From contig CAYLUP010000004.1 of NCBI GenBank assembly GCA_964386905.1, positions 1 to 61,356 of the forward strand: DNA of 61,356 nucleotides, read 5' to 3'. Below, piece after piece: positions 1 through 11,903 of this stretch (the stretch's first letter is position 1; every line of letters starts with the position of its first letter). A model generated the notes under the pieces. The model did no database searches and had not been told where the DNA came from. It saw only the letters and a list, made by a program, of their open reading frames with translations. The stretch is from an uncultured Candidatus Saccharibacteria bacterium. Lineage in GTDB: Bacteria > Patescibacteriota > Minisyncoccia > Phycocordibacterales > UBA6899. The translations under genes and the position numbers were made by a program.

Positions 1-85
1 AGTGAATAGTGATAAGTGATGAGTGAACAGAGGAATGCAGTGGTTCGTGGAAAGTAGATAAACAGAAAAAGAATTGAGCAAGAGA

Positions 86-493
86 GTGCGGGCAGGGGGT
101 CGGCGTCAGCTCACATCAATATTTTCTTTCGCGATGCTCACAAAATACTAAGTGCTCGCGACCCCGCCTCCGCGACCGTGCGTCGCTCGAAGACTCGCCG
201 ACGACGGTACCCGCGTCCGGCTTTCGATTCCCCCTGCCCGTGCAAAATGAAACCACGGAAATGTTGTCACATTTCCGTGGTCATTTTGTGCGGGGATCAT
301 CGGTCACAAGTCACTAAGTATTTTGTTTCGCCTTGCTCACAAAATACTAAGTGCTCGCGACCCCGCCTCCGCGACCGTGCGTCGCTCGAAGACTCGCCGA
401 CGACGGTACCCGCGTCCGGCTTTCGATTCCCCCTGCCCGTGCAAAATGAAACCACGGAAATGTTGTCACATTTCCGTGGTCATTTTGTGCGGG
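86..493 (-). repeat. tRNA-Gly(TCC)-anchored repeat: two tandem ~200-bp units
   Basis: 160-bp direct repeat at 135-294 and 334-493 (period 199). tRNA 3'-end fragments at 86-99, 288-294 and in the tRNA itself; inverted tRNA 3'-end copies at 223-240 and 422-439. Confidence 0.95.
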
Positions 494-558
494 CAGGGGG
501 AATCGAACCCCCGACACCTGCTTGGAAGGCAGGAGTTTTACCACTAAACTACACCCGC
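488..558 (-). tRNA. tRNA-Gly (TCC)
   Basis: Reverse complement GCGGGTGTAGTTTAGTGGTAAAACTCCTGCCTTCCAAGCAGGTGTCGGGGGTTCGATTCCCCCTGCCCGCA folds as a cloverleaf. Anticodon TCC; CCA not encoded. Confidence 0.95.
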
Positions 559-660
559 ATATTTTTGTTCACATATACTAACAAAGATACACAATTTTGC
601 AAATTACAATTGACCCCCTCATTCCACCTGATATACTCTCGGCAGGCTTTCGGAGTGAAT

Positions 661-1056
661 ATGGTAGAACATGTTCTTTCTCTTCTTCATGAAAAAAGAC
701 AACGAGAGGAGCGCCACCACGCACGCATGCAAATGCTACACAAACGTCTAGTTCGGAATGCACGCGCAATGCTCTGCACATGCTCTGAATGCAATACAAC
801 ATCACGTATTTCGGAATGGAGTTTTGTGCAGCAATACACATTTGATCGTGCTGGCTGGTTTCCAGACGACAGCGAAAAATGTCCAATTCAATGTCCAGCC
901 TGCATGTCACTCAACCGCTTCTCAAGACACAAAGATATTGCGGAAACGTTGCTTCGCCTTTTTCAGGAACATGTTTCACTACACACAATTTTTAAGGAAG
1001 TACTTCATCGTGACGGATCACGAGGGAAAATATTTCATGAACGCATGACGTCGTAA
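661..1056 (+). CDS. Hypothetical protein with Cys clusters (CxCxxC ... CPxxCPxC), possible Zn-binding
   Basis: 3' part of ORF 178-1056. ATG at 661 has GGAG upstream and a TATACT -10-like hexamer further upstream. Confidence 0.6.
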   Translation: MVEHVLSLLHEKRQREERHHARMQMLHKRLVRNARAMLCTCSECNTTSRISEWSFVQQYTFDRAGWFPDDSEKCPIQCPACMSLNRFSRHKDIAETLLRLFQEHVSLHTIFKEVLHRDGSRGKIFHERMTS

Positions 1057-1261
1057 GCAGGGACACCCCTGCTTTTTTGTTACACGTACCAAAACATGCC
1101 GTTGGTTTTTCTCTATTGATGTTACACACATCTGTAAAACGTTATCAGTGCTCACTATCAAAAATGTTATTTTTTTATTTCTTCGCGAGAGCGTATGTTC
1201 TTTTTACGGCAATGTGTGTTTCTCATCAATACATTTTTGAAACACGCAAACGCAGATACAT

Positions 1262-1903
1262 TTACCTCTGTATCGAGAGGGGGCAATTCTCGTGGGCATG
1301 TTTTCTTGCAACACAATATGTTCGCCCATATTGAATAAGGTAATATGTCAGATTCCCCCACTCCTCATTTGGAAATATATGCATAAGATCACGCTCGACA
1401 CGAAGAGGATCACTTGAGGTTGTGTAACCAAGAACACGTGCGATTCGCTTTACATGTGTATCAACAGCAATACCCTCATGAATTCCAAAGAGTCCACTCA
1501 GAACAACATTCGCTGTCTTTCTGCCAACACCTGGAATCGAAACTAATTCAGACATGGTCTTTGGAACTACACCACCATATCGAGAGAGAAGATGTGCTGC
1601 AGCCTCTTGGATATGCTTTGCTTTTGTGCGATAAAATCCTGTTGGGAAAATAATGCGTTCGACTTCTTTTCTTTTTGCAGCCACAAGACTCTCAAGAGTT
1701 GGATACGTTTTAAAAAGCGTTGGTGTCACTCGATTGACCATATCATCCGTGCACTGTGCGGAAAGAATAACTGCAAGCAAAAGCTCATAGCCTTTCGTAT
1801 GATTCAAAAAGAGATACGGCTCAGGAAAAAGTCTCTTCAACTTCTTTAGGTCACTCTGTGCTTTTTGTTGAATATCAATTGCCTTCACCTCTCTACTGTA
1901 CAT
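1262..1903 (-). CDS. nth: Endonuclease III (HhH-GPD DNA glycosylase/AP lyase)
   Basis: Motifs ELLLAVILSAQCTD, HhH LVSIPGVGRKTANVVL and IAVDTHV. The true start may be the GTG a few codons in. Confidence 0.95.
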   Translation of the reverse strand: MYSREVKAIDIQQKAQSDLKKLKRLFPEPYLFLNHTKGYELLLAVILSAQCTDDMVNRVTPTLFKTYPTLESLVAAKRKEVERIIFPTGFYRTKAKHIQEAAAHLLSRYGGVVPKTMSELVSIPGVGRKTANVVLSGLFGIHEGIAVDTHVKRIARVLGYTTSSDPLRVERDLMHIFPNEEWGNLTYYLIQYGRTYCVARKHAHENCPLSIQR

Positions 1904-2040
1904 GAAATTTGTGTCACGAAAAGGGGCTGGCTTTTTTTGCTGCGTATGCTAATATGCAAGAACAATACACAAGCGAGCCTCCGGCGACCATGGATATTGT
2001 ATGCAATTCAATCAAAGTTGAGATAGGTAGCAGCAGCGGT

Positions 2041-2245
2041 CATTCCCGCATATCGGGATCAGAGAGCGGGCGAGCCCGCAGTGATCGTGTGTGCAACGTG
2101 CGAGACAATCAAATATCGGAGTGTGGTGTAACGGCTAACATTCCCGCATATCGGGATCAGAGAGCGGGCGAGCCCGCAGTGATCGTGTGTGCAACGTGCG
2201 AGACAATCAAATATCGGAGTGTGGTGTAACGGCTAACATTCCCGC
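2041..2245 (+). repeat. Exact 98-bp tandem duplication including the 5' half of tRNA-Pro
   Basis: CATTCCCGC recurs at 2041, 2139 and 2237; 2041-2147 equals 2139-2245. Confidence 0.95.
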
Positions 2246-2287
2246 TTTGGGAGCGGGCGACTCAGGGTTCGAATCCCTGCACTCCGA
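2215..2287 (+). tRNA. tRNA-Pro (TGG)
   Basis: CGGAGTG...CACTCCGA acceptor stem, anticodon arm CCCGC-TTTGGGA-GCGGG and TTCGAAT T-loop; CCA not encoded. Confidence 0.95.
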
Positions 2288-2651
2288 CAACGAACGACAT
2301 ACATGGAAACATGTATGTCGTTTTCGTTAACAAAGCATCATGCCGCATAAAAAACTATCCAGGAACAGTACACATGAAACACTGTGCTTGCACGCACCGT
2401 ACAGAAACAATTTTTCTTCAACTTGTTTGCACACACAATATATGTCGAGCACAATACAATAACCACAATTCAACCACACACATCAGCAACGCTTTAATAC
2501 GTGACAAAAACCTTTTGCAAAATTTTTACAACATACATGGACTCGCTCCAACACCTCTACAAAAAAACACACCACAGGAACTACATCACACAGAATACCC
2601 ACGCCCGATCACTACACCTGAGAAAATAAAAAATCGGCACCGCCGATTTTT

Positions 2652-3578
2652 TTATAAAGGATAATACGAATAACTCTTGCGAAAACTTTGTCGCTGCAAT
2701 AAATGTTCTTGCTTCTTTTCAAGCGCATGTAATCTCCTTTCGAGCACCTCATCTCCTCCCCTCTTCTTGTGTAGTGCTGTCACACGCGCCGCATACAACC
2801 GGAGAACTGCATCGCGTTTGTGCTCAATCTCCTTTTTTCGTGCCTCAAAGCGTTCAGCAGTTGCAATCTCTGTAAGATCCGCTTCCATCATTTCTTGAGT
2901 GAGTTCCACGCGTTCGCGTTCAATCGAAGAGAGATCGCGATCTCGCTCAGACTCAATATCGTGAAACGAGAGAAACTCATCGTGTGTCCTTGGAGAATTG
3001 TCATGTTTGTGTGCCATCTCACGGAGTATTGCGCGACGCTCCTTTTCACATGCAGCAAACAACATCGCATCAGCAGATCGACGACCTGTAACACGAGAAA
3101 GTACTGGGCGCTGAAAAAGCGTGTCGACAAGCGTATGGATTTCGTCTGCCTCTCGTTCGTCATCTGTGTGCTCGGGTTCGCAAGCGATGCAATGTGGTAC
3201 CCCAGCTTGCGATAATCCACTTGGATGTTTAGTTGAAAGAGATACTAATCGTTTTACCCAGCGATCAGTACCCCCATCCCCTTGTGGCGATTCAACTGGA
3301 AGCTCATCTGCTGCAAAAAGGGCATTTGCAAGCGTAAGCACATTAGCAATCTCCTTGGCGGCTACAGACCTGTGAATGTCTTCGTGGTCACGAACACGTG
3401 AAGGATGGAGATCGGCCAAAGAAGAAGACTGCATCATGCGATGAATTCGTTCAGCAACTGACGCAACAGTTGCCTTTGCTTCATCAGGAAGCTGGGAGAC
3501 AACCTCACTAACAGCCAGAATCTCATGACTCTCTGGTTTTCTCTCTTCGATATATATGTACGAGTATGTATTTTTCAT
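2652..3578 (-). CDS. Hypothetical protein, charged helical/coiled-coil C-terminus
   Basis: 308-aa ORF with E/R/K-rich heptads; no recognised motif. Confidence 0.7.
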   Translation of the reverse strand: MKNTYSYIYIEERKPESHEILAVSEVVSQLPDEAKATVASVAERIHRMMQSSSLADLHPSRVRDHEDIHRSVAAKEIANVLTLANALFAADELPVESPQGDGGTDRWVKRLVSLSTKHPSGLSQAGVPHCIACEPEHTDDEREADEIHTLVDTLFQRPVLSRVTGRRSADAMLFAACEKERRAILREMAHKHDNSPRTHDEFLSFHDIESERDRDLSSIERERVELTQEMMEADLTEIATAERFEARKKEIEHKRDAVLRLYAARVTALHKKRGGDEVLERRLHALEKKQEHLLQRQSFRKSYSYYPL

Positions 3579-3588
3579 ATAGGTAAAA

Positions 3589-3936
3589 TTACACGGATAC
3601 CGGACTCTTATCTACCTCAACCTCATCGGAGGATGACGACTCATCATCAATCGTCGCAATATCTGCAAGATCAAGCTCTTTCATGACTTTTTCCTCTTCT
3701 TCAAGCACATCATGAAGATGGTGAAGGTTTCCACGGGCATCTAGCTTTTTCTTCAAACTCTTTGCTATTGCATCAACAGCAAATGGATTTTCTTCCGCAG
3801 AAAGAACAAAAAGAGTCAGCATTCCTGAATCAAGATATGGAAGTCTTTCAAACATTAATTGTTTATCAGCATCAGACAAATGGGAGTGTCGTATCACATG
3901 TCGCGCCTTCACAAGAAGTAGTGGATGGTGAGTCAT
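3589..3936 (-). CDS. Hypothetical protein with acidic tail
   Basis: 115-aa ORF, 10 bp upstream of the previous ORF on the same strand. Confidence 0.7.
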   Translation of the reverse strand: MTHHPLLLVKARHVIRHSHLSDADKQLMFERLPYLDSGMLTLFVLSAEENPFAVDAIAKSLKKKLDARGNLHHLHDVLEEEEKVMKELDLADIATIDDESSSSDEVEVDKSPVSV

Positions 3937-4829
3937 AAATAAAGAGCAGTAATAATAAGTATATGTAAGACTATATAATTATGACATACTTCCTCGATTC
4001 CACAATCCACACATCCACTTGTTCCGTAGGAACATACGTACTTGCTCTTCTCTATCGGTTTCACGTGCAACGTAAAAAAGAACCAAAAGAAACAATATTT
4101 GTACATATTCGATGTGCCTATTCCCCTATTTGTTTAGCTGTGAGATAGAACATGTTTCATGTGCAACATGTCGTGTCCAAAATTGAGCATATGATTGTAC
4201 TGATTGATAATAGACCCAAAACACTCTCAGCAAGAAAGTTGCATCTTCTTCAAGAAATACGTACACAACAGACACAAGCAATAAATTTCCGATATACATG
4301 AGGAATATCCAAGAGCATCGAGCACGGAACTGTTTCACGTGAAAACACGTACCAAGTATGGACACCTCAGTTACTCACTAGGTACCTGCGGAAACAGAAA
4401 TATGGCCGCTCAATCAAATAATATATGTCCACGGGCGATATGTTTATATTTCAATCAAAGTATGTGTTACACATGAAATCATACGTAAACATCTAAAATA
4501 ACCAAAAATTCATTTCAATACAGTCAAAATGTCTATAATTTTACAAGTTCGGGCATCACAAAAAAAGAAACAAAACCATATGACTTGTAAAAATCGAATA
4601 AAAAGAAGCGAAAAACGATATGCTGCTATAATCAATTTCCGACAAGAGAAAGTTAGATCAAAACTAAAATCAATTTAGCGATGTCTTCAGCATACTGCTC
4701 ACAATACGTTGAAATACTGTTACACATGAAACTTATGATATATTATGACGGTTTTGATAAAATATGTTCCGTAGTTACATAAATAATACAAATTACGAAA
4801 TCAATCATCACCATGAGTTTCACGTGAAA

Positions 4830-5213
4830 TTATATACTGTCAATATATACATTCTCCCTAAGCTCAATTTCAGCAGTATATGATTGATTATTTAGAGCAA
4901 TGTTCATGAGTGATATGCACCGAGGAAGACGAATAGCCCTGTTTCGCATATAGTGAGTCATAACTGTGACCAAACGCTCAATCTTTTCACGTGTAACATG
5001 TATTCTCGGATGAAATTTGCTTGAAAGACCATATGTTAAAGATGTTTTAACCTCAATACAATGTATCAATCCGTTTTTCTCAGCGATAATATCAATTTCT
5101 CCAACACCATAAAGCTCATAATTTCGATCTACGATTCGATAGCCGACACTTCTCAAGTACCGCACAGCTACAGCTTCTCCAACATTACCGCTCTGTTTAG
5201 CTATACTTACCAT
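4830..5213 (-). CDS. yraN: YraN family (UPF0102) putative endonuclease
   Basis: GxxGExxAxxYL...NY...GEIDIIAEK...IHCIEVKT PD-(D/E)xK pattern. Start trimmed to the ATG at 5213. Confidence 0.9.
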   Translation of the reverse strand: MVSIAKQSGNVGEAVAVRYLRSVGYRIVDRNYELYGVGEIDIIAEKNGLIHCIEVKTSLTYGLSSKFHPRIHVTREKIERLVTVMTHYMRNRAIRLPRCISLMNIALNNQSYTAEIELRENVYIDSI

Positions 5214-5254
5214 ACATATAGTATATATGTGAAATACCCAATATTGCAAATACT

Positions 5255-5441
5255 TGTCCTTTATCCCCATTGTCCACAGGGTTATACACAGTGTCCTTGA
5301 GTGCCACAGCCTTAATACGAGAGTTTTTACACGCAAAAGACAATCCACAATAGTTATGTGGATAAGTCTGTGGACAATGGGGATATCAAGGACATGCTGA
5401 CAGTATGTCCTTTATCCCCACTATCCACAGGGTTATGCACA
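5255..5441. promoter_or_regulatory. DnaA-box cluster made of three ~36-bp modules
   Basis: Perfect TTATNCACA boxes at 5282-5290, 5357-5365 (reverse) and 5433-5441. Near-matches at 5261, 5270, 5341, 5369 (reverse), 5412 and 5421. Confidence 0.8.
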
Positions 5442-5569
5442 TATCGGACATATTAATGTTCAGAGACAAAAGTAGCATTTCTTTTCTATGTCCGAGACCG
5501 TCTTGCACTACATTCTAATGTTCTACATGAAACATACTTTTCCACGCAAGCACCTTTTTGAGGTGCTTG

Positions 5570-5821
5570 CTCTATCCGCAACAGAGAAAGGCCCGGAGGC
5601 CTCTTTCTTTGTGGGGGTAGGGAGATATCTCACACGCTCGCAAGGCTCGCTCCTCGGAAACCCATCCTGAATCATAGTCGTAAATAGTAATTTACTTCTT
5701 GTTCAGGACAGGCTCCGACTCGCTGCCTTCCTCCACAGGGAAACGGCTGTTTCCCCGACCCCCTTCCGTTCTATTCTCCCTACCCGCACAAAGAAAAAAA
5801 GCCTTTCGGCCCTTTTCTTTG
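5570..5821 (-). repeat. tRNA-Gly(GCC)-anchored ~210-bp unit (second core family)
   Basis: Inverted copy of the tRNA 3' end at 5769-5797. Degenerate direct copy TTTCTTTGTGGGGGTAGGGAGA at 5604-5625 versus 5814-5835. Confidence 0.85.
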
Positions 5822-5892
5822 TGCGGGTAGGGAGAATCGAACTCCCGTCTCGTCCTTGGCAAGGACGCATTCTACCACTAAACCATACCCGC
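5822..5892 (-). tRNA. tRNA-Gly (GCC)
   Basis: Reverse complement GCGGGTATGGTTTAGTGGTAGAATGCGTCCTTGCCAAGGACGAGACGGGAGTTCGATTCTCCCTACCCGCA folds as a cloverleaf; CCA not encoded. Confidence 0.95.
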
Positions 5893-5968
5893 GAATTTGT
5901 TGTAGAAGTATATTATCGTATTTCAATATATTTGGCAAGTTAGCGTTTATCGTATATATTGTAGGCAC

Positions 5969-6040
5969 GCTCCTGTGGTGAAGCGGATATCACAACGGTC
6001 TTCGAAACCGTTATCCCAGGTTCGAGTCCTGGCGGGAGCA
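5969..6040 (+). tRNA. tRNA-Arg (TCG)
   Basis: GCTCCTG...CGGGAGCA acceptor stem and anticodon arm ACGGT-CTTCGAA-ACCGT; CCA not encoded. Confidence 0.95.
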
Positions 6041-6275
6041 CAAAAATACAGAGAGAAATGTGCAGCATTTCTCGACATTATTTTTGCTATACGACAGGGC
6101 TCGAAGGCCGGACCCGGGCACCGTCGCGCATGCGCAGCATCGCGCACGGTCGGGGAGGCGGGGTCGCGAGCACAGTATCTCTTGTGCATTCATACAAGGG
6201 ATACTGTGACTTGTGACCGAGTCCTGGCGGGAGCACAAAAATACAAAGAGAAATGTACAACATTTCTCCACATTT
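6041..6275 (+). repeat. tRNA-Arg(TCG)-anchored ~195-bp unit
   Basis: 28-bp exact direct repeat at 6023-6050 and 6218-6245. Core 6101-6173 is homologous to the reverse complement of ~152-226. Confidence 0.92.
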
Positions 6276-6400
6276 CCTTACCTAAGTTCAAGGTAAAATT
6301 TAATTCTCGTAAGAGTTTCTCCTATATTTTCACGTGAAACACGTGATACTCCTTATTTTAACCATGCACAGATGTTTCATGTGCAACACCGTCCTTTTCT

Positions 6401-7885
6401 ATGTCATTACTATCTATACCAAAAGAAATTGCTTTTATTGCGGCAACCCTCGAACACGCAGGCTTTGAGGCATATCTTGTTGGAGGGTGCACGCGTGATC
6501 TCCTTGAAGGGAAAACTCCCAAGGACTGGGACATCACAACCAATGCACGCCCGGAACAAATTATTGCGATCTTTCCTCATACATTCTACGAAAATGATTT
6601 CGGTACTGTTGGTATCGTCAATGACGAGATCCCAGAAGATGATACCGACCGAGCAACTCTCCGTGTTGTTGAAATCACTCCATATCGCACAGAGTCGACC
6701 TACTCAGACCATCGACGCCCAGATGCCGTCAGATTTGCTGACAGTATCTATGAAGACCTTGAACGTCGAGACTTCACAATGAATGCAATCGCGTACAACA
6801 TCGCGAAAGACGAGCTCATCGATCCATACCTTGGTATTACAGACATTCGCAACAAGACTATTCGCGCAGTAGGGGATCCACATTTGCGTTTTACGGAGGA
6901 TGCACTTCGTGTCATGCGTGCAGTCCGCTTTGTTGCCCAACTGGGATTTCAAGTTGAAGAGAAGACGCTTCAGGCTGTCATCAGTCACGCCCCTCTGGTA
7001 CAAAAAATATCCATCGAACGTGTTCGTGACGAATTCTCAAAGCTCATTATGTCCGACAATCCAATGGAGGGAATCGTTTTTCTCCATCGTGTCAATCTCC
7101 TTTCCTATGTTTGCCCAGAACTTATTGAAGGACTTGGCTGTGTGCAAAATAACTCTCACATCTATGATGTCTGGGAGCATAGTCTTCGCGCACTCCAACA
7201 TGCTGCTGACAAAAAATTTCCAATTCATGTTCGCCTTGGAGCACTCTTTCATGATATTGGGAAACCAAAATCTCGCCGATATGCTCCAGAGAGAAAGGAC
7301 TGGACGTTCTATGGGCACGAAGTCATTGGTGCGCGCATGGTAGAAAAAATTCTTGATCGACTCCGGTTCTCCCGAGACATTGTCACAAAGGTGACACTTC
7401 TCGTCCGCTATCATATGTTCTTCTCTGACATCGAGCAAATCACCCTTTCTGCAGTCCGTCGTATCGTTGCAAACGTTGGCGCAGATCTTGTATGGGACCT
7501 TATGTCTGTTCGATCCTGTGATCGCATTGGCATGGGACGCCCACTGGAAACTCCATATCGCCTTCGAAAATATCACTCGATGATTGAAGAAGCGATGCGT
7601 GCACCAGTATCTGTCAAAATGTTAAAGGTCGATGGGGGAGTTATTATGACCGAACTTGGCGAAGCACCTGGACCAAGAGTTGGCGCACTCCTCCATGCAC
7701 TCTTTGATGCAGTGCTCGAAAATCCTGAACTCAACACACGAGAGCAGCTTCTAGACCTCGCTCGCACATACCAATCTCTTTCCCATGACGAGCTTCTTGC
7801 AAAAGGAGAAGCAGGGAAGATGAGCAAAGACGAAGAAGAGAAGAAAGAAATCAAGGAGCTTCGTAAAAAATACCACGTGAAATAA
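6401..7885 (+). CDS. cca: CCA tRNA nucleotidyltransferase with HD domain
   Basis: YLVGGCTRD, DWDITT, DLERRDFTMNAIA, FTEDALRVMRAVRF, and the HD motif H..H...LFHDIGK. Confidence 0.93.
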   Translation: MSLLSIPKEIAFIAATLEHAGFEAYLVGGCTRDLLEGKTPKDWDITTNARPEQIIAIFPHTFYENDFGTVGIVNDEIPEDDTDRATLRVVEITPYRTESTYSDHRRPDAVRFADSIYEDLERRDFTMNAIAYNIAKDELIDPYLGITDIRNKTIRAVGDPHLRFTEDALRVMRAVRFVAQLGFQVEEKTLQAVISHAPLVQKISIERVRDEFSKLIMSDNPMEGIVFLHRVNLLSYVCPELIEGLGCVQNNSHIYDVWEHSLRALQHAADKKFPIHVRLGALFHDIGKPKSRRYAPERKDWTFYGHEVIGARMVEKILDRLRFSRDIVTKVTLLVRYHMFFSDIEQITLSAVRRIVANVGADLVWDLMSVRSCDRIGMGRPLETPYRLRKYHSMIEEAMRAPVSVKMLKVDGGVIMTELGEAPGPRVGALLHALFDAVLENPELNTREQLLDLARTYQSLSHDELLAKGEAGKMSKDEEEKKEIKELRKKYHVK

Positions 7886-10597: not shown

Positions 10598-11545
10598 CTA
10601 CACCCCACCTCCTCTTCTCTTTCCGTGAAACTGTTTATGGATCTCCTGTAATTTCTTATCTGTCACGTGTGTATATATTTGTGTGGTCACAATACTCGAG
10701 TGGCCAAGCATTGCCTGCACAGAACGAATATCTGCACCATTTTCCAAGAGGTCTGTTGCAAAGGAGTGACGTAAGACGTGCGGGGTGACCTTTTTCGTGA
10801 TTCCTGATAGCACCGCATAATGCTTCACAATACGCTCAACTGATCGTGTTGTGATGCGCAATGATTCAGAGCGCTTTGCGAGGTTTTTCTCACCTCCGCG
10901 ACCGATAGAAATAAAGAGTGCTGGATCGACATCTGTCCTTTTTGCAAGATAGTCCTTGATGGACTCTTTTGCATCATCAGACAAAAAGACAACACGGACT
11001 TTTTCGCCTTTTCCGCGAACCGAGAAAAAGTCGCGAGAAAGATCAATATCCCTATCGAGGGACACGAGTTCAGAGACACGCAATCCGGTAGAAAAGAACA
11101 ACTCAAGCATTGCACGATCACGCAAACTTGCGAGATCATCACCCTTTGGGGCACGTAAGAGATTCTGCAGGTCTGTCGTCCCAATCAAATCCAATTCGCG
11201 CTGAGGAACTTTTGCAAGCTCGATTTGCTCTGGCGGCAGACTCCGTACTCCTTGGCGTACAAGGTATTTTAGGAATGCACGTAGTGCAATAAGATAATAA
11301 TTCTGCGTCCTGCGCTTCATGGGAGAGGGGACAACGCCGCGTTTTCCCTGACCGACAACACGACGATTCAACCACATGCGAAATTCACGAACCATATCGC
11401 TCGTAATATCTTCCGGCGCAGACACTTTTGTTTGCTCAACAAACGTCAACAAATAGTGTTCGTAGTTCCGGACCGTATTCAAACTCCGCCCGCGTTCAAT
11501 TTCGGTGTATTCAAGAAATCTTCGGATCCAGTCAGTCATCTTCAT
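10598..11545 (-). CDS. xerC: Tyrosine recombinase XerC/XerD-like
   Basis: RDRAMLELFFSTGLRVSEL, VRGKGEKVR, TPHVLRHSFATDLL and LGHSSIVTTQIYTH. Start trimmed to 11545. XerC versus XerD cannot be resolved. Confidence 0.88.
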   Translation of the reverse strand: MKMTDWIRRFLEYTEIERGRSLNTVRNYEHYLLTFVEQTKVSAPEDITSDMVREFRMWLNRRVVGQGKRGVVPSPMKRRTQNYYLIALRAFLKYLVRQGVRSLPPEQIELAKVPQRELDLIGTTDLQNLLRAPKGDDLASLRDRAMLELFFSTGLRVSELVSLDRDIDLSRDFFSVRGKGEKVRVVFLSDDAKESIKDYLAKRTDVDPALFISIGRGGEKNLAKRSESLRITTRSVERIVKHYAVLSGITKKVTPHVLRHSFATDLLENGADIRSVQAMLGHSSIVTTQIYTHVTDKKLQEIHKQFHGKRRGGGV

Positions 11546-11612
11546 TCCTTGATTATAACAGACGTGTATCACCTGTGGACACAAAACAATAATCTCATGA
11601 TAAAATAAGAAT

Positions 11613-11903
11613 ATGAACTTTCGACCTGAAGGAAACCTACAAGAAGAAATCCTGTCACCAACAGATACACAAATTGCATGGGAGGGCTCTTCTCTCACTA
11701 ATGAGGACTTGCCTCCAATACCTAATGGAATAGAAACGAAGAATGGTATTTTCATCGACGATGGTTTTGGAGACTCCGAGCCCTCTGAGCAAGATTTTCG
11801 ATCTATTGCTGAAGTAAGAGCAGATCTTCTTGCGCGAGGAATCAATCCTGATCAATTCAATTTTGACTTTATCGACGAGTCATTACAAGGATATAGTGAA
11901 TAG
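11613..11903 (+). CDS. Small acidic hypothetical protein
   Basis: 96-aa ORF divergent from xerC. Confidence 0.6.
   Translation: MNFRPEGNLQEEILSPTDTQIAWEGSSLTNEDLPPIPNGIETKNGIFIDDGFGDSEPSEQDFRSIAEVRADLLARGINPDQFNFDFIDESLQGYSE

Follow-up and report, generated by a model that had tools for sequence, protein, structure and literature searches.

A putative family of small mobile elements with a structured core and rewritten tRNA gene ends in Patescibacteria

R2/SIDE elements, with a ribozyme like that of hepatitis delta virus (HDV), and retrozymes, with a hammerhead ribozyme, are site-specific retroelements that are transcribed together with a host RNA gene and use a ribozyme of their own for processing. 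Palindrome-associated transposable elements (PATEs) of the IS200/IS605 type are recognised by subterminal hairpins at both ends, by the absence of terminal inverted repeats (TIRs) and of a target duplication, and by a cognate TnpA (Y1 HUH) in the genome. Candidate Phyla Radiation bacteria (CPR, Patescibacteria), with genomes of about 1 Mb, are thought to be low in selfish DNA. Here we analysed a stretch of 61,356 nucleotides from an uncultured Candidatus Saccharibacteria bacterium (contig CAYLUP010000004.1, positions 1 to 61,356, hereafter the window), in which the tRNA-Gly(GCC) gene is followed by a core sequence that is flanked by copies of the tRNA end in both orientations. We named the core family B and the constant part of the element E. 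On balance we favour the reading that a non-autonomous mobile element of family B with a structured RNA core inserted here long ago and has since become defective.

The copies of family B share a common anatomy. The end of the upstream gene (T) is followed by a hairpin, by T', by NGRAAG-GGGGUC, hairpin 1, GUGGNGGAAGG and an optional hairpin, then by hairpin 2 with the loop (A)CCGNNGGG, GGAG, a variable hairpin, GACG and T again. T comprises the last 15-25 nt of the target, in tRNAs from the T-loop on, and T' the reverse complement of T. The length of E is 65-140 nt, and its sense is that of the upstream gene. The parts of the window copy are listed below in transcript order, which is the sense of the minus strand.

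5821-5892, minus strand: tRNA-Gly(GCC), the target gene, intact, CCA not encoded (ARAGORN; Rfam tRNA model, 70.3 bits)
5822-5842, minus strand: T_prox, tRNA G53-A73 (GTTCGATTCTCCCTACCCGCA), 5' arm of a long palindrome
5789-5821, minus strand: trailer and hairpin tip, centre of the palindrome, terminator-like in appearance
5813-5821, minus strand: A-tract of the trailer, CAAAGAAAA
5801-5812, minus strand: tip, GGGCC-GAAA-GGC
5789-5800, minus strand: U-tract, TTTTTTTCTTTG
5768-5788, minus strand: T', antisense of tRNA G53-A73 (TGCGGGTAGGGAGAATAGAAC), 20/21 complementary, 3' end at the complement of G53
5626-5767, minus strand: core, GGAAGGGGGTCGGGGAAAC-AGCC-GTTTCCCTGTGGAGGAAGG...
5757-5767, minus strand: linker GGAAG and conserved single-stranded GGGGTC (family consensus NGRAAG-GGGGUC)
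5737-5756, minus strand: core hairpin 1, GGGGAAAC-AGCC-GTTTCCCT, from covariance model R1 (see below)
5709-5736, minus strand: junction GTGGAGGAAGG (5726-5736), then the remnant of an optional hairpin 1b (CAGCGAGTC...)
5665-5716, minus strand: 52-nt copy-specific segment in place of the canonical 19 nt TTCGAGCGTCGGAAAACCG (5' strand and loop of hairpin 2); the core is broken by this replacement
5665-5708, minus strand: AT-rich hairpin TCCTGAAC...TTCAGGA (CCTGAAC...TTCAGGA) inside the 52-nt segment
5650-5664, minus strand: remnant of the loop and 3' strand of hairpin 2, TGGGTTTCCGAGGAG
5635-5649, minus strand: variable hairpin 3, CGAGCCTTGCGAGCG
5626-5634, minus strand: pseudo-T-loop junction TGTGAGATA, of which the part GAGATATCTCCC is the same in locus L121
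5582-5625, minus strand: T_dist, decayed direct copy of the tRNA 3' end and trailer with a GGCC-TCCG-GGCC hairpin
5570-5581, minus strand: degenerate second antisense arm TTGCGGATAGAG, which closes the distal hairpin
5547-5569, minus strand: next hairpin, CAAGCACC-TCAAAAA-GGTGCTTG, outside the repeat and, judged from its sequence, probably the original downstream terminator

Every part named in the original prediction (tRNA end, hairpin, antisense arm, core, direct copy with its GGCC hairpin, and a spacing of about 210) was present where it had been placed. The repeat finder reported an inverted repeat with the arms 5768-5797 and 5813-5842 (30 nt, 97% complementary, 15 nt between, tip GGGCCGAAAGGC), the far arm being the reverse complement of tRNA G53-A73 plus trailer. 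Folded as RNA, positions 5768-5842 reached -56 kcal/mol compared to -17.8 ± 2.8 for shuffled sequences (z = -13.8; 0 of 200 shuffles equal). The direct copy at 5587-5625 agrees with 5797-5835 in 79% over 39 nt at a spacing of 210, and T_dist is 95% complementary to T' over 22 nt. The succession of hairpin, core and hairpin (H-E-H) was also found in L035, L038 and L010 (locus handles as in our collection) and in a dispersed subtype. The tip has features of a terminator, GGCC-GAAA-GGC followed by T7CTTTG, and was not flagged by a simple terminator scan because its stem is too short; in other copies the inner hairpin is a clear terminator with A-tract, stem and U-tract. The window contains four tRNA genes, none of which encodes CCA, and three of the four bear such elements at the 3' end.

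In order to determine the spread of the family we scanned one genome per GTDB species for the exact pattern GGGGTCGGGGAAAC-N2-10-GTTTCCC. The motif singled out by the original prediction proved widespread, with at least 120 stretches, and among the matches listed nearly all were metagenome-assembled genomes (MAGs) of Patescibacteria (Parcubacteria lineages, Moranbacteria, Jorgensenbacteria, Taylorbacteria and others). Family B appears restricted to this group. Within the window the 15-nt motif occurs once, which is not significant by itself as 0.55 matches are expected at up to three mismatches; we take it as real because of the copies outside the window and the score of the covariance model. 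This model (R1) was built from 35 copies and matched the window once, at 5692-5770 on the minus strand (52.4 bits, E-value 1.8e-10), which places the window copy in family B. Hairpin 2 was not recovered there because its 5' half is replaced. The model gave 108 matches in L001-L100 and more in L101-L125, and overall the same core with covarying helices is found in more than 130 loci from many CPR lineages.

Searches for a known identity gave the following results. With Rfam 15 at the gathering score, the window and 16 other loci yielded tRNAs only, and for positions 1-7000 a scan at E-values up to 5 returned just generic microRNA-hairpin models on the palindrome, far below their gathering scores. 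The unmatched families include the HDV-like, hammerhead, twister, pistol, hatchet and hairpin ribozymes, group I/II introns, IS605-orfB and HEARO. We also compared the minimal 64-nt core by eye with the layouts of HDV-like, hammerhead, pistol, twister and hairpin ribozymes and found no fit. Full-text literature searches returned no description of these elements, and the B core is apparently an undescribed structured RNA. The exact pattern had 0 matches among 2.9 million viral contigs (IMG/VR), on which grounds we rejected carriage by phages. A 94-nt 'tRNA-His' called by ARAGORN across the L016 core is an artefact, as T_dist supplies a T-arm and an acceptor strand. Separately, the last ~45 nt of the L024 contig, downstream of its B copy, contain CTGATGAGTCCAAAAGGACG, which resembles the conserved hammerhead ribozyme core and is cut by the contig end; the Rfam scan gave no match there.

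There is no open reading frame (ORF) inside the element. We clustered the ORFs of at least 90 aa within 8 kb of 120 loci: no enzyme family was enriched, and reverse transcriptase (RT), TnpA and TnpB were not among the neighbours. The recurring neighbour families are housekeeping ones (ABC transporter, EF-G/Tu, FtsX, RF, RecG, RpoA, S9 and others). The nearest integrase in the window (10598-11845) is Xer-like, syntenic and in the same place in relatives.

The flanks are copied from the target. We compared the 30 nt before the core with the upstream sequence and found a reverse-complement match (score >=10) in 63 of the 103 copies and in 0 shuffled controls; a direct copy downstream of the core was present in 30 of 103, against 1 control. 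The antisense copy is tied to the core: T' was present at 51/66 tRNAs with a core and at 8/63 without one. These eight carry other cores in the same geometry. At L108, L032 and L093 the core is of the type GCCGGAGC...GAGGCGGTGCC, related to the family (A) found in the window at tRNA-Gly(TCC) and tRNA-Arg, and at least one further family occurs at L098 and L029, so that at least three core families other than B share the arrangement. The idea that the geometry is the unit is borne out by this recurrence. Parts of the original prediction did not hold. Families A and B had been considered unrelated except for one short motif; when aligned, they share GG(A/C)GGGGTCG with the following hairpin and the GCGAGTCTTCGAGCG module, and they occur fused or in tandem at one tRNA in L123 and L049. 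Nor is a spacing of ~200 bp a fixed property: the direct copy starts 64 to about 160 nt past the motif, since the spacing follows the length of the core.

A first alternative dispenses with an element altogether and assumes local rearrangement at tRNA genes, in which terminator palindromes cause replication slippage or template switches and the G-rich core is filler by chance. Quasi-palindrome correction and fold-back synthesis can make inverted copies beside hairpins, and partial tRNA duplications on the 5' side do exist (window tRNA-Pro, 2041-2236; a pseudo-tRNA-Arg in L121). However, this account is already contradicted by the same covarying core in more than 130 loci of many lineages and by the rarity of T' at tRNAs without a core, and we give it almost no credence.

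The boundaries of the tRNA-linked copies are precise. T' ends exactly at the complement of G53 in 35/55 cases and is followed by the 6-nt linker and GGGGUC; the target-complementary segment measures 11-31 nt. The exact direct copy usually starts at nt 60/61 or 57, after a pseudo-T-loop (GUGAGAU or GUUCGAU), and mostly stops 0-7 nt beyond the tRNA 3' end, the flanking direct repeats of the target gene end being 13-57 nt long. We rejected a primer-binding site for mature tRNA because T' runs on into the complement of the trailer and not of CCA.

A variable segment that abuts a constant structured scaffold at a fixed point would fit a guide RNA. T' and/or T_dist might direct a nuclease, recombinase or transposase encoded elsewhere towards unoccupied targets, by a homing logic like that of TnpB/IscB omega-RNAs, IS110 bridge RNAs or the dual-strand guides of TIGR-Tas. 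Each of the two flanks is complementary to a different DNA strand of one target, near-identical scaffolds with different T and T' occur in one genome (L041a/b), and unusual RNA-guided systems are known from CPR genomes (TIGR-Tas, PMC12045711). We nevertheless regard RNA-guided homing as rather unlikely. Within 8 kb there is no linked effector, only the housekeeping families, so that beyond a guide-like T' with a fixed junction nothing assigns the elements to CRISPR, omega-RNA, bridge-RNA or TIGR-Tas systems. T_prox stays intact at an occupied site, so that the element's own locus would be open to attack by a nuclease. Compared to bridge or TIGR RNAs, the guide-like segments are much longer and overlap differently, and E, 64 nt at its minimum, does not match the omega-RNA, tracrRNA or bridge-RNA models of Rfam. 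The architecture of the B unit also differs from the 36-nt TIGR units, from which we judged TIGR-Tas to be unrelated (PMC12045711).

The pristine copy at L075 bears on a further alternative. Its 46-nt direct repeat extends from the T-loop to the terminator end, the 3'-terminal part of the primary transcript, and its T' starts exactly at the end of the terminator palindrome, where a folded-back terminated transcript would start extension. E could then be a new self-cleaving (and ligating) ribozyme of a retrozyme-like or R2/SIDE-like retroelement that frees unit-length RNA from read-through or tandem transcripts; the RNA would be circularised or joined to tRNA 3' fragments, copied by an RT acting in trans, possibly self-primed from the terminator hairpin so that T' is generated, and returned to a tRNA gene by homology. 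The tandem arrays of ~200 bp, the breakpoints in tRNA loops and the compact fold of E with its possible triplex fit such a cycle, and R2 is likewise co-transcribed with a host RNA gene and has a ribozyme helix partly made of host sequence. The B elements share further traits with R2/SIDE and retrozymes: small non-autonomous copies, a strict orientation behind a highly transcribed RNA gene, an RNA structure at the junction whose closing helix may include host sequence, and ~200-bp tandem units in some loci. In contrast to both, E matches no HDV-like or hammerhead model and no RT was found linked or enriched within 8 kb, so that we do not place the elements in either group; unlike R2 and retrozymes, B carries the target end in both orientations and has a bacterial (CPR) host. 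Simple self-primed extension moreover predicts an antisense E after T', whereas E is observed in sense orientation, and self-cleavage of E is a prediction to which none of the Rfam ribozyme families corresponds. We consider this origin quite improbable.

Half of the assessable copies (55/110) lie behind a tRNA on the same strand that ends at most 200 nt upstream (median 70.5 nt), compared to ~1.6% expected by the density of tRNAs in these loci, which are rich in tRNAs to begin with, and 2/110 have a tRNA on the opposite strand. The proposed link to tRNAs is thus confirmed, and 32 anticodon species are used. The tRNA is, however, not the only target, as had been implied: roughly every second copy follows a protein gene or belongs to the dispersed, MITE-like units (MITE, miniature inverted-repeat transposable element). 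The last codons of rpsI (uS9, ...PQWSKR*) are a recurrent target in L008, L017, L025 and L038. The dispersed subtype is a ~230-bp unit with unrelated outer flanks, and a few copies lie directly upstream of start codons.

To study the fold of the core we measured covariation on an alignment of 108 rows. Cells in paired columns were complementary in 97.7% of cases, compared to 85.7% for shuffles and 31-71% with the partners slid. The helices covary, with double-sided changes in 14 of the 16 pairs (219 cells in total) and in all seven pairs of hairpin 2. Wide spread, tRNA linkage and covariation all run counter to what would have refuted the original prediction. The sequence of hairpin 1 is fixed by the search pattern, and its compensatory variants come from copies found by other routes (GGGAGAGG/CCTCTCCC in L121; GGAGGAAC/GTTCCTCC in L010). 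G-U outnumbers A-C by 19 vs 7. The sense strand folds better than the antisense strand in 95/102 copies, which is supportive only, as G-richness contributes. We conclude that the core is a folded single strand and probably RNA, and E would act in that form. We also observed that the junction ends in three bases that mirror the 5' strand of hairpin 2 (same bases in reversed order) in 80% of the cells (25-49% out of register; 43% for shuffles), with or without the optional hairpin in between. The mirrored columns are 60-62 vs 93-95 and 136-138 of alignment A2; in the window the junction part lies at 5726-5728 and the stem is lost. The implied triples are A.A-U, G.G-C, U.A-U and C.C-G, which is suggestive of a three-layer major-groove triplex of stacked base triples.

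The family has proliferated within genomes. Cores that are 100% identical but have different outer flanks occur in L048/L074/L080 and in L021/L031; L041a and L041b are 95% identical with different T and T', and L009 and L036 are 91% identical. Between genomes the median identity of the core is 63%. Tandem or mixed arrays are present in L034, L062, L049, L123 and at the window tRNA-Gly(TCC). At L100 (2690-2790) a sequence of ~110 nt with 19-nt inverted ends (GGGACTGTTGCCGAATAGC... / ...GCCATTCGGCAACAGTCCC) is nested in hairpin 2 of a B copy that is otherwise identical to L021/L031, an insertion within an insertion.

We retrieved syntenic loci by homologues of the window CCA enzyme, the exact-protein look-up having given no match. 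L121, whose CCA enzyme is 74% identical, carries a B element at the same tRNA-Gly(GCC), the ortholog of the window copy; the older event suspected in the original prediction is supported by this shared insertion together with the loss of the 5' strand and loop of hairpin 2 in the window. This loss follows from a contig of run X1, which has the canonical 19 nt TTCGAGCGTCGGAAAACCG between 5664 and 5717, where the model alignment skips the 52-nt stretch of the window. Between the window and L121 the tRNA is identical, T' is identical in 20/21 positions, the GGGGTCGGG motif, the junction and GAGATATCTCCC are kept and hairpin 1 is compensated; the other parts have diverged. The window copy is thus old and defective.

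Presence and absence vary among relatives. At tRNA-Pro, L121 has a B copy and the window has none. A family A element lies behind the window tRNA-Arg(TCG) (5969-6041) at 6023-6274 on the plus strand, with 57-nt direct repeats that are 93% identical and include the terminator hairpin. Behind tRNA-Arg, family A is also present in L121, L123 and L125, with L123 a composite of both families, and the site is empty in L124, the closest relative (80%). A contig near-identical to the window, from wastewater run X6, lacks exactly the 195-bp Arg unit.

The conservation between the window and L121 also raises the question whether the host benefits. T:T' hairpin and E could form a cis-acting RNA module that acts on the read-through transcript of the tRNA or rpsI and whose copies spread because they are useful, be it as a terminator booster, as a processing or decay signal, or as a self-cleaving 3'-trailer ribozyme like the HDV-like theta ribozymes. 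The copies are always on the same strand and just downstream of highly expressed genes; the window and L121 have both kept the palindrome T-hairpin-T', in which the trailer changes compensate each other, as well as the junction GAGATATCTCCC, which is able to pair with T'; and the fold of E is conserved. A precedent is found in the theta ribozymes, which adjoin phage tRNAs (PMC10879173). Like these, E is a small structured RNA 3' of tRNA genes; unlike them, which abut the tRNA 3' end, E starts ~60-80 nt later, after hairpin and T', HDV-like models are unmatched and there are no matches to viral contigs. A host function is further weakened by relatives that lack the element at the same tRNA with no visible harm (L124 tRNA-Arg; window tRNA-Pro), by the window tRNA, which is intact though half of hairpin 2 is lost, by dispersed copies away from gene ends, by the lack of a match to known ribozyme models in Rfam, and by the competition with the acceptor and T stems of the tRNA that T' would bring if it were transcribed. 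We therefore hold a host module to be unlikely.

How an element of family B would move we infer from its integrated form. Elements adjoin the terminator of a conserved gene on its 3' side, most often that of a tRNA, and the order would always be T, terminator hairpin, T', E and T. A small unit [T-hairpin-T'-E] might recombine with the chromosomal T in a Campbell-type insertion. In a second route the growing strand would fold back at the palindromic terminator so that T is copied into T', E would then be copied from another copy, and the universal T-loop sequence would be where the strand rejoins the target. As the gene end is brought along by the unit or regenerated, the tRNA would remain intact, and the repeats between the T copies would allow tandem amplification and precise loss. 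We also worked through simple self-primed reverse transcription, integron/CTX-type integration of folded single-stranded DNA, P-nucleotide hairpin opening, and target-primed reverse transcription with target duplication on paper; each was rejected singly because none yields T-hairpin-T'-E(sense)-T without extra steps. To our knowledge no transposition scheme predicts flanks in two orientations together with a breakpoint at G53.

Several observations weigh against a mobile element with an RNA core. No excised circle, cDNA or fresh insertion was seen, and the empty site in X6 fits a deletion between the 57-nt repeats equally well as a gain. A unit that carries its own T and T' poorly explains retargeting to 32 tRNA species, and de novo templating by the second route requires three template switches. 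Some copies occupy positions like a 5' untranslated region and lack T or T'. The palindrome T-hairpin-T' is near-perfect in the window and in L121 while E decays, and the trailers of the two palindromes differ, each being mutually compensated; this points to selection on the palindrome or to continual palindrome correction, and is not what a purely selfish model predicts. The G-U bias and the GNRA-like tips fit folded single-stranded DNA too. A promoter-like site was not found inside the element. No usable coverage was obtained from the metatranscriptome contigs of the study that the window comes from, of a wastewater RNA library or of a New Zealand groundwater study; the only related elements were on stray contigs in run X17, whose run type is uncertain.

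A bolder version is possible and we put it forward tentatively. The elements could be a new self-targeting mobile RNA/DNA: templated copying would place an E of ~65 nt with a triplex into the end of any conserved gene and write the target forwards and backwards around it, and T'/T would serve as auto-reprogrammed guides or form the helix that closes a ribozyme of a new type. Alternatively, an RNA-guided recombinase or nuclease still to be discovered, with its gene elsewhere in the CPR genomes, could use E as its scaffold. In either case we would have a homing system able to retarget among all tRNA species with no protein gene of its own.

Among DNA elements, PATEs come close. Both lack an ORF and have similar subterminal hairpins at both ends (H-E-H), and the dispersed subtype, judged by eye, is without TIRs or an obvious short target duplication; as in PATEs and TnpB omega-RNAs, a structured RNA at the right end is followed by flank-derived sequence, and insertion is strand-specific. 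Unlike PATEs, no TnpA or TnpB is found in the neighbourhoods surveyed, which reach 8 kb from the 120 loci; E is too short for the Rfam IS605-orfB models and unlike them; the left hairpin of B is made from the target gene's end; and direct repeats of 13-57 nt flank the tRNA-linked copies. With integrase-borne islands and prophages at tRNA 3' ends (attL/attR) the elements share the direct repeat of the tRNA 3' part from the T-loop, the regenerated gene end with a functional tRNA, and the possibility of precise loss. In contrast to such islands, the B insert measures 130-260 bp, has no integrase and adds an inverted att-like copy, and one core family uses dozens of tRNAs and rpsI; with the repeat present and no ORF in the element, we do not count it among integrase-mediated islands.

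REP/BIME/REPIN and MITE repeats of bacteria are reviewed in PMC3184786. Like these, the B elements are short, GC-rich, hairpin-forming intergenic repeats downstream of genes with many copies per genome. Unlike in these repeats, E is not a simple palindrome and has covarying helices, conserved single-stranded motifs and a possible triplex; B moreover has flanks copied from the target and lacks the conserved GTAG-type REP head. MITEs are recognised by TIRs of an IS family and a short target-site duplication of fixed length. The repeats of variable length (13-57 nt) and the dispersed copies, which by eye and short of a formal terminal-repeat search have no TIRs or short duplication, speak against assignment to MITEs.

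With three of four window tRNAs bearing elements and one core family in at least 120 stretches of a species-level scan, these findings contrast with the view of CPR genomes as low in selfish DNA. They comprise a structured RNA that covaries well, is apparently undescribed and may have a purine-type stack of base triples, and a mobile element that has its flanks rewritten from the target, once in each orientation, and its breakpoint fixed at tRNA G53. Where CPR MAGs show partial tRNA duplications, long palindromes or assembly breaks beside tRNAs, such elements offer an explanation, and the annotation of tRNAs and terminators in these MAGs calls for caution. Should T'/T be guides or E a ribozyme, they would provide a compact programmable part; should the element be a mere hitch-hiker on host recombination, it would still be a marker of strain-level variation and horizontal exchange in uncultured lineages.

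Further structures were noticed beside the other tRNA genes. Family A at window 120-493 (minus strand), beside tRNA-Gly(TCC) (487-558), consists of two tandem 199-bp units that agree in 98% over 175 nt and have diverged 3' ends; a third copy of the tRNA-Gly(TCC) end, perfect over 13 nt, lies at 86-99. The uneven identity along the tandem units suggests gene conversion inside an older array. At window 2041-2236, upstream of and overlapping tRNA-Pro(TGG) (2215-2288), there is an exact 98-bp tandem duplication that includes the 5' flank and the tRNA from position 1 to 31; a variant anticodon arm and then a GCGGGC-GA-GCCCGC fold-back come next, and the breakpoint is in the anticodon loop. This is the 5'-side counterpart of the 3'-end elements. 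In L121 (7470-7636) a pseudo-tRNA-Arg stands directly upstream of the real gene: after the 5' flank and positions 1-44 its variable loop holds a structured insert of ~100 nt, and its T-arm is truncated in the T-loop.

In the window, tRNA-Arg and its element are directly followed by the gene for the CCA-adding enzyme (6401-7885). Eight DnaA-box-like 9-mers (TTATCCACA, at most one mismatch) occur within 180 bp at 5261-5441, between the UPF0102 gene and tRNA-Gly(GCC); this cluster, a possible oriC, is kept in L121 at about 6680-7000. The cumulative GC skew of the window turns at ~46 kb, where a looser DnaA-box-like cluster, likewise a possible oriC, is found (43.9-46.4 kb).

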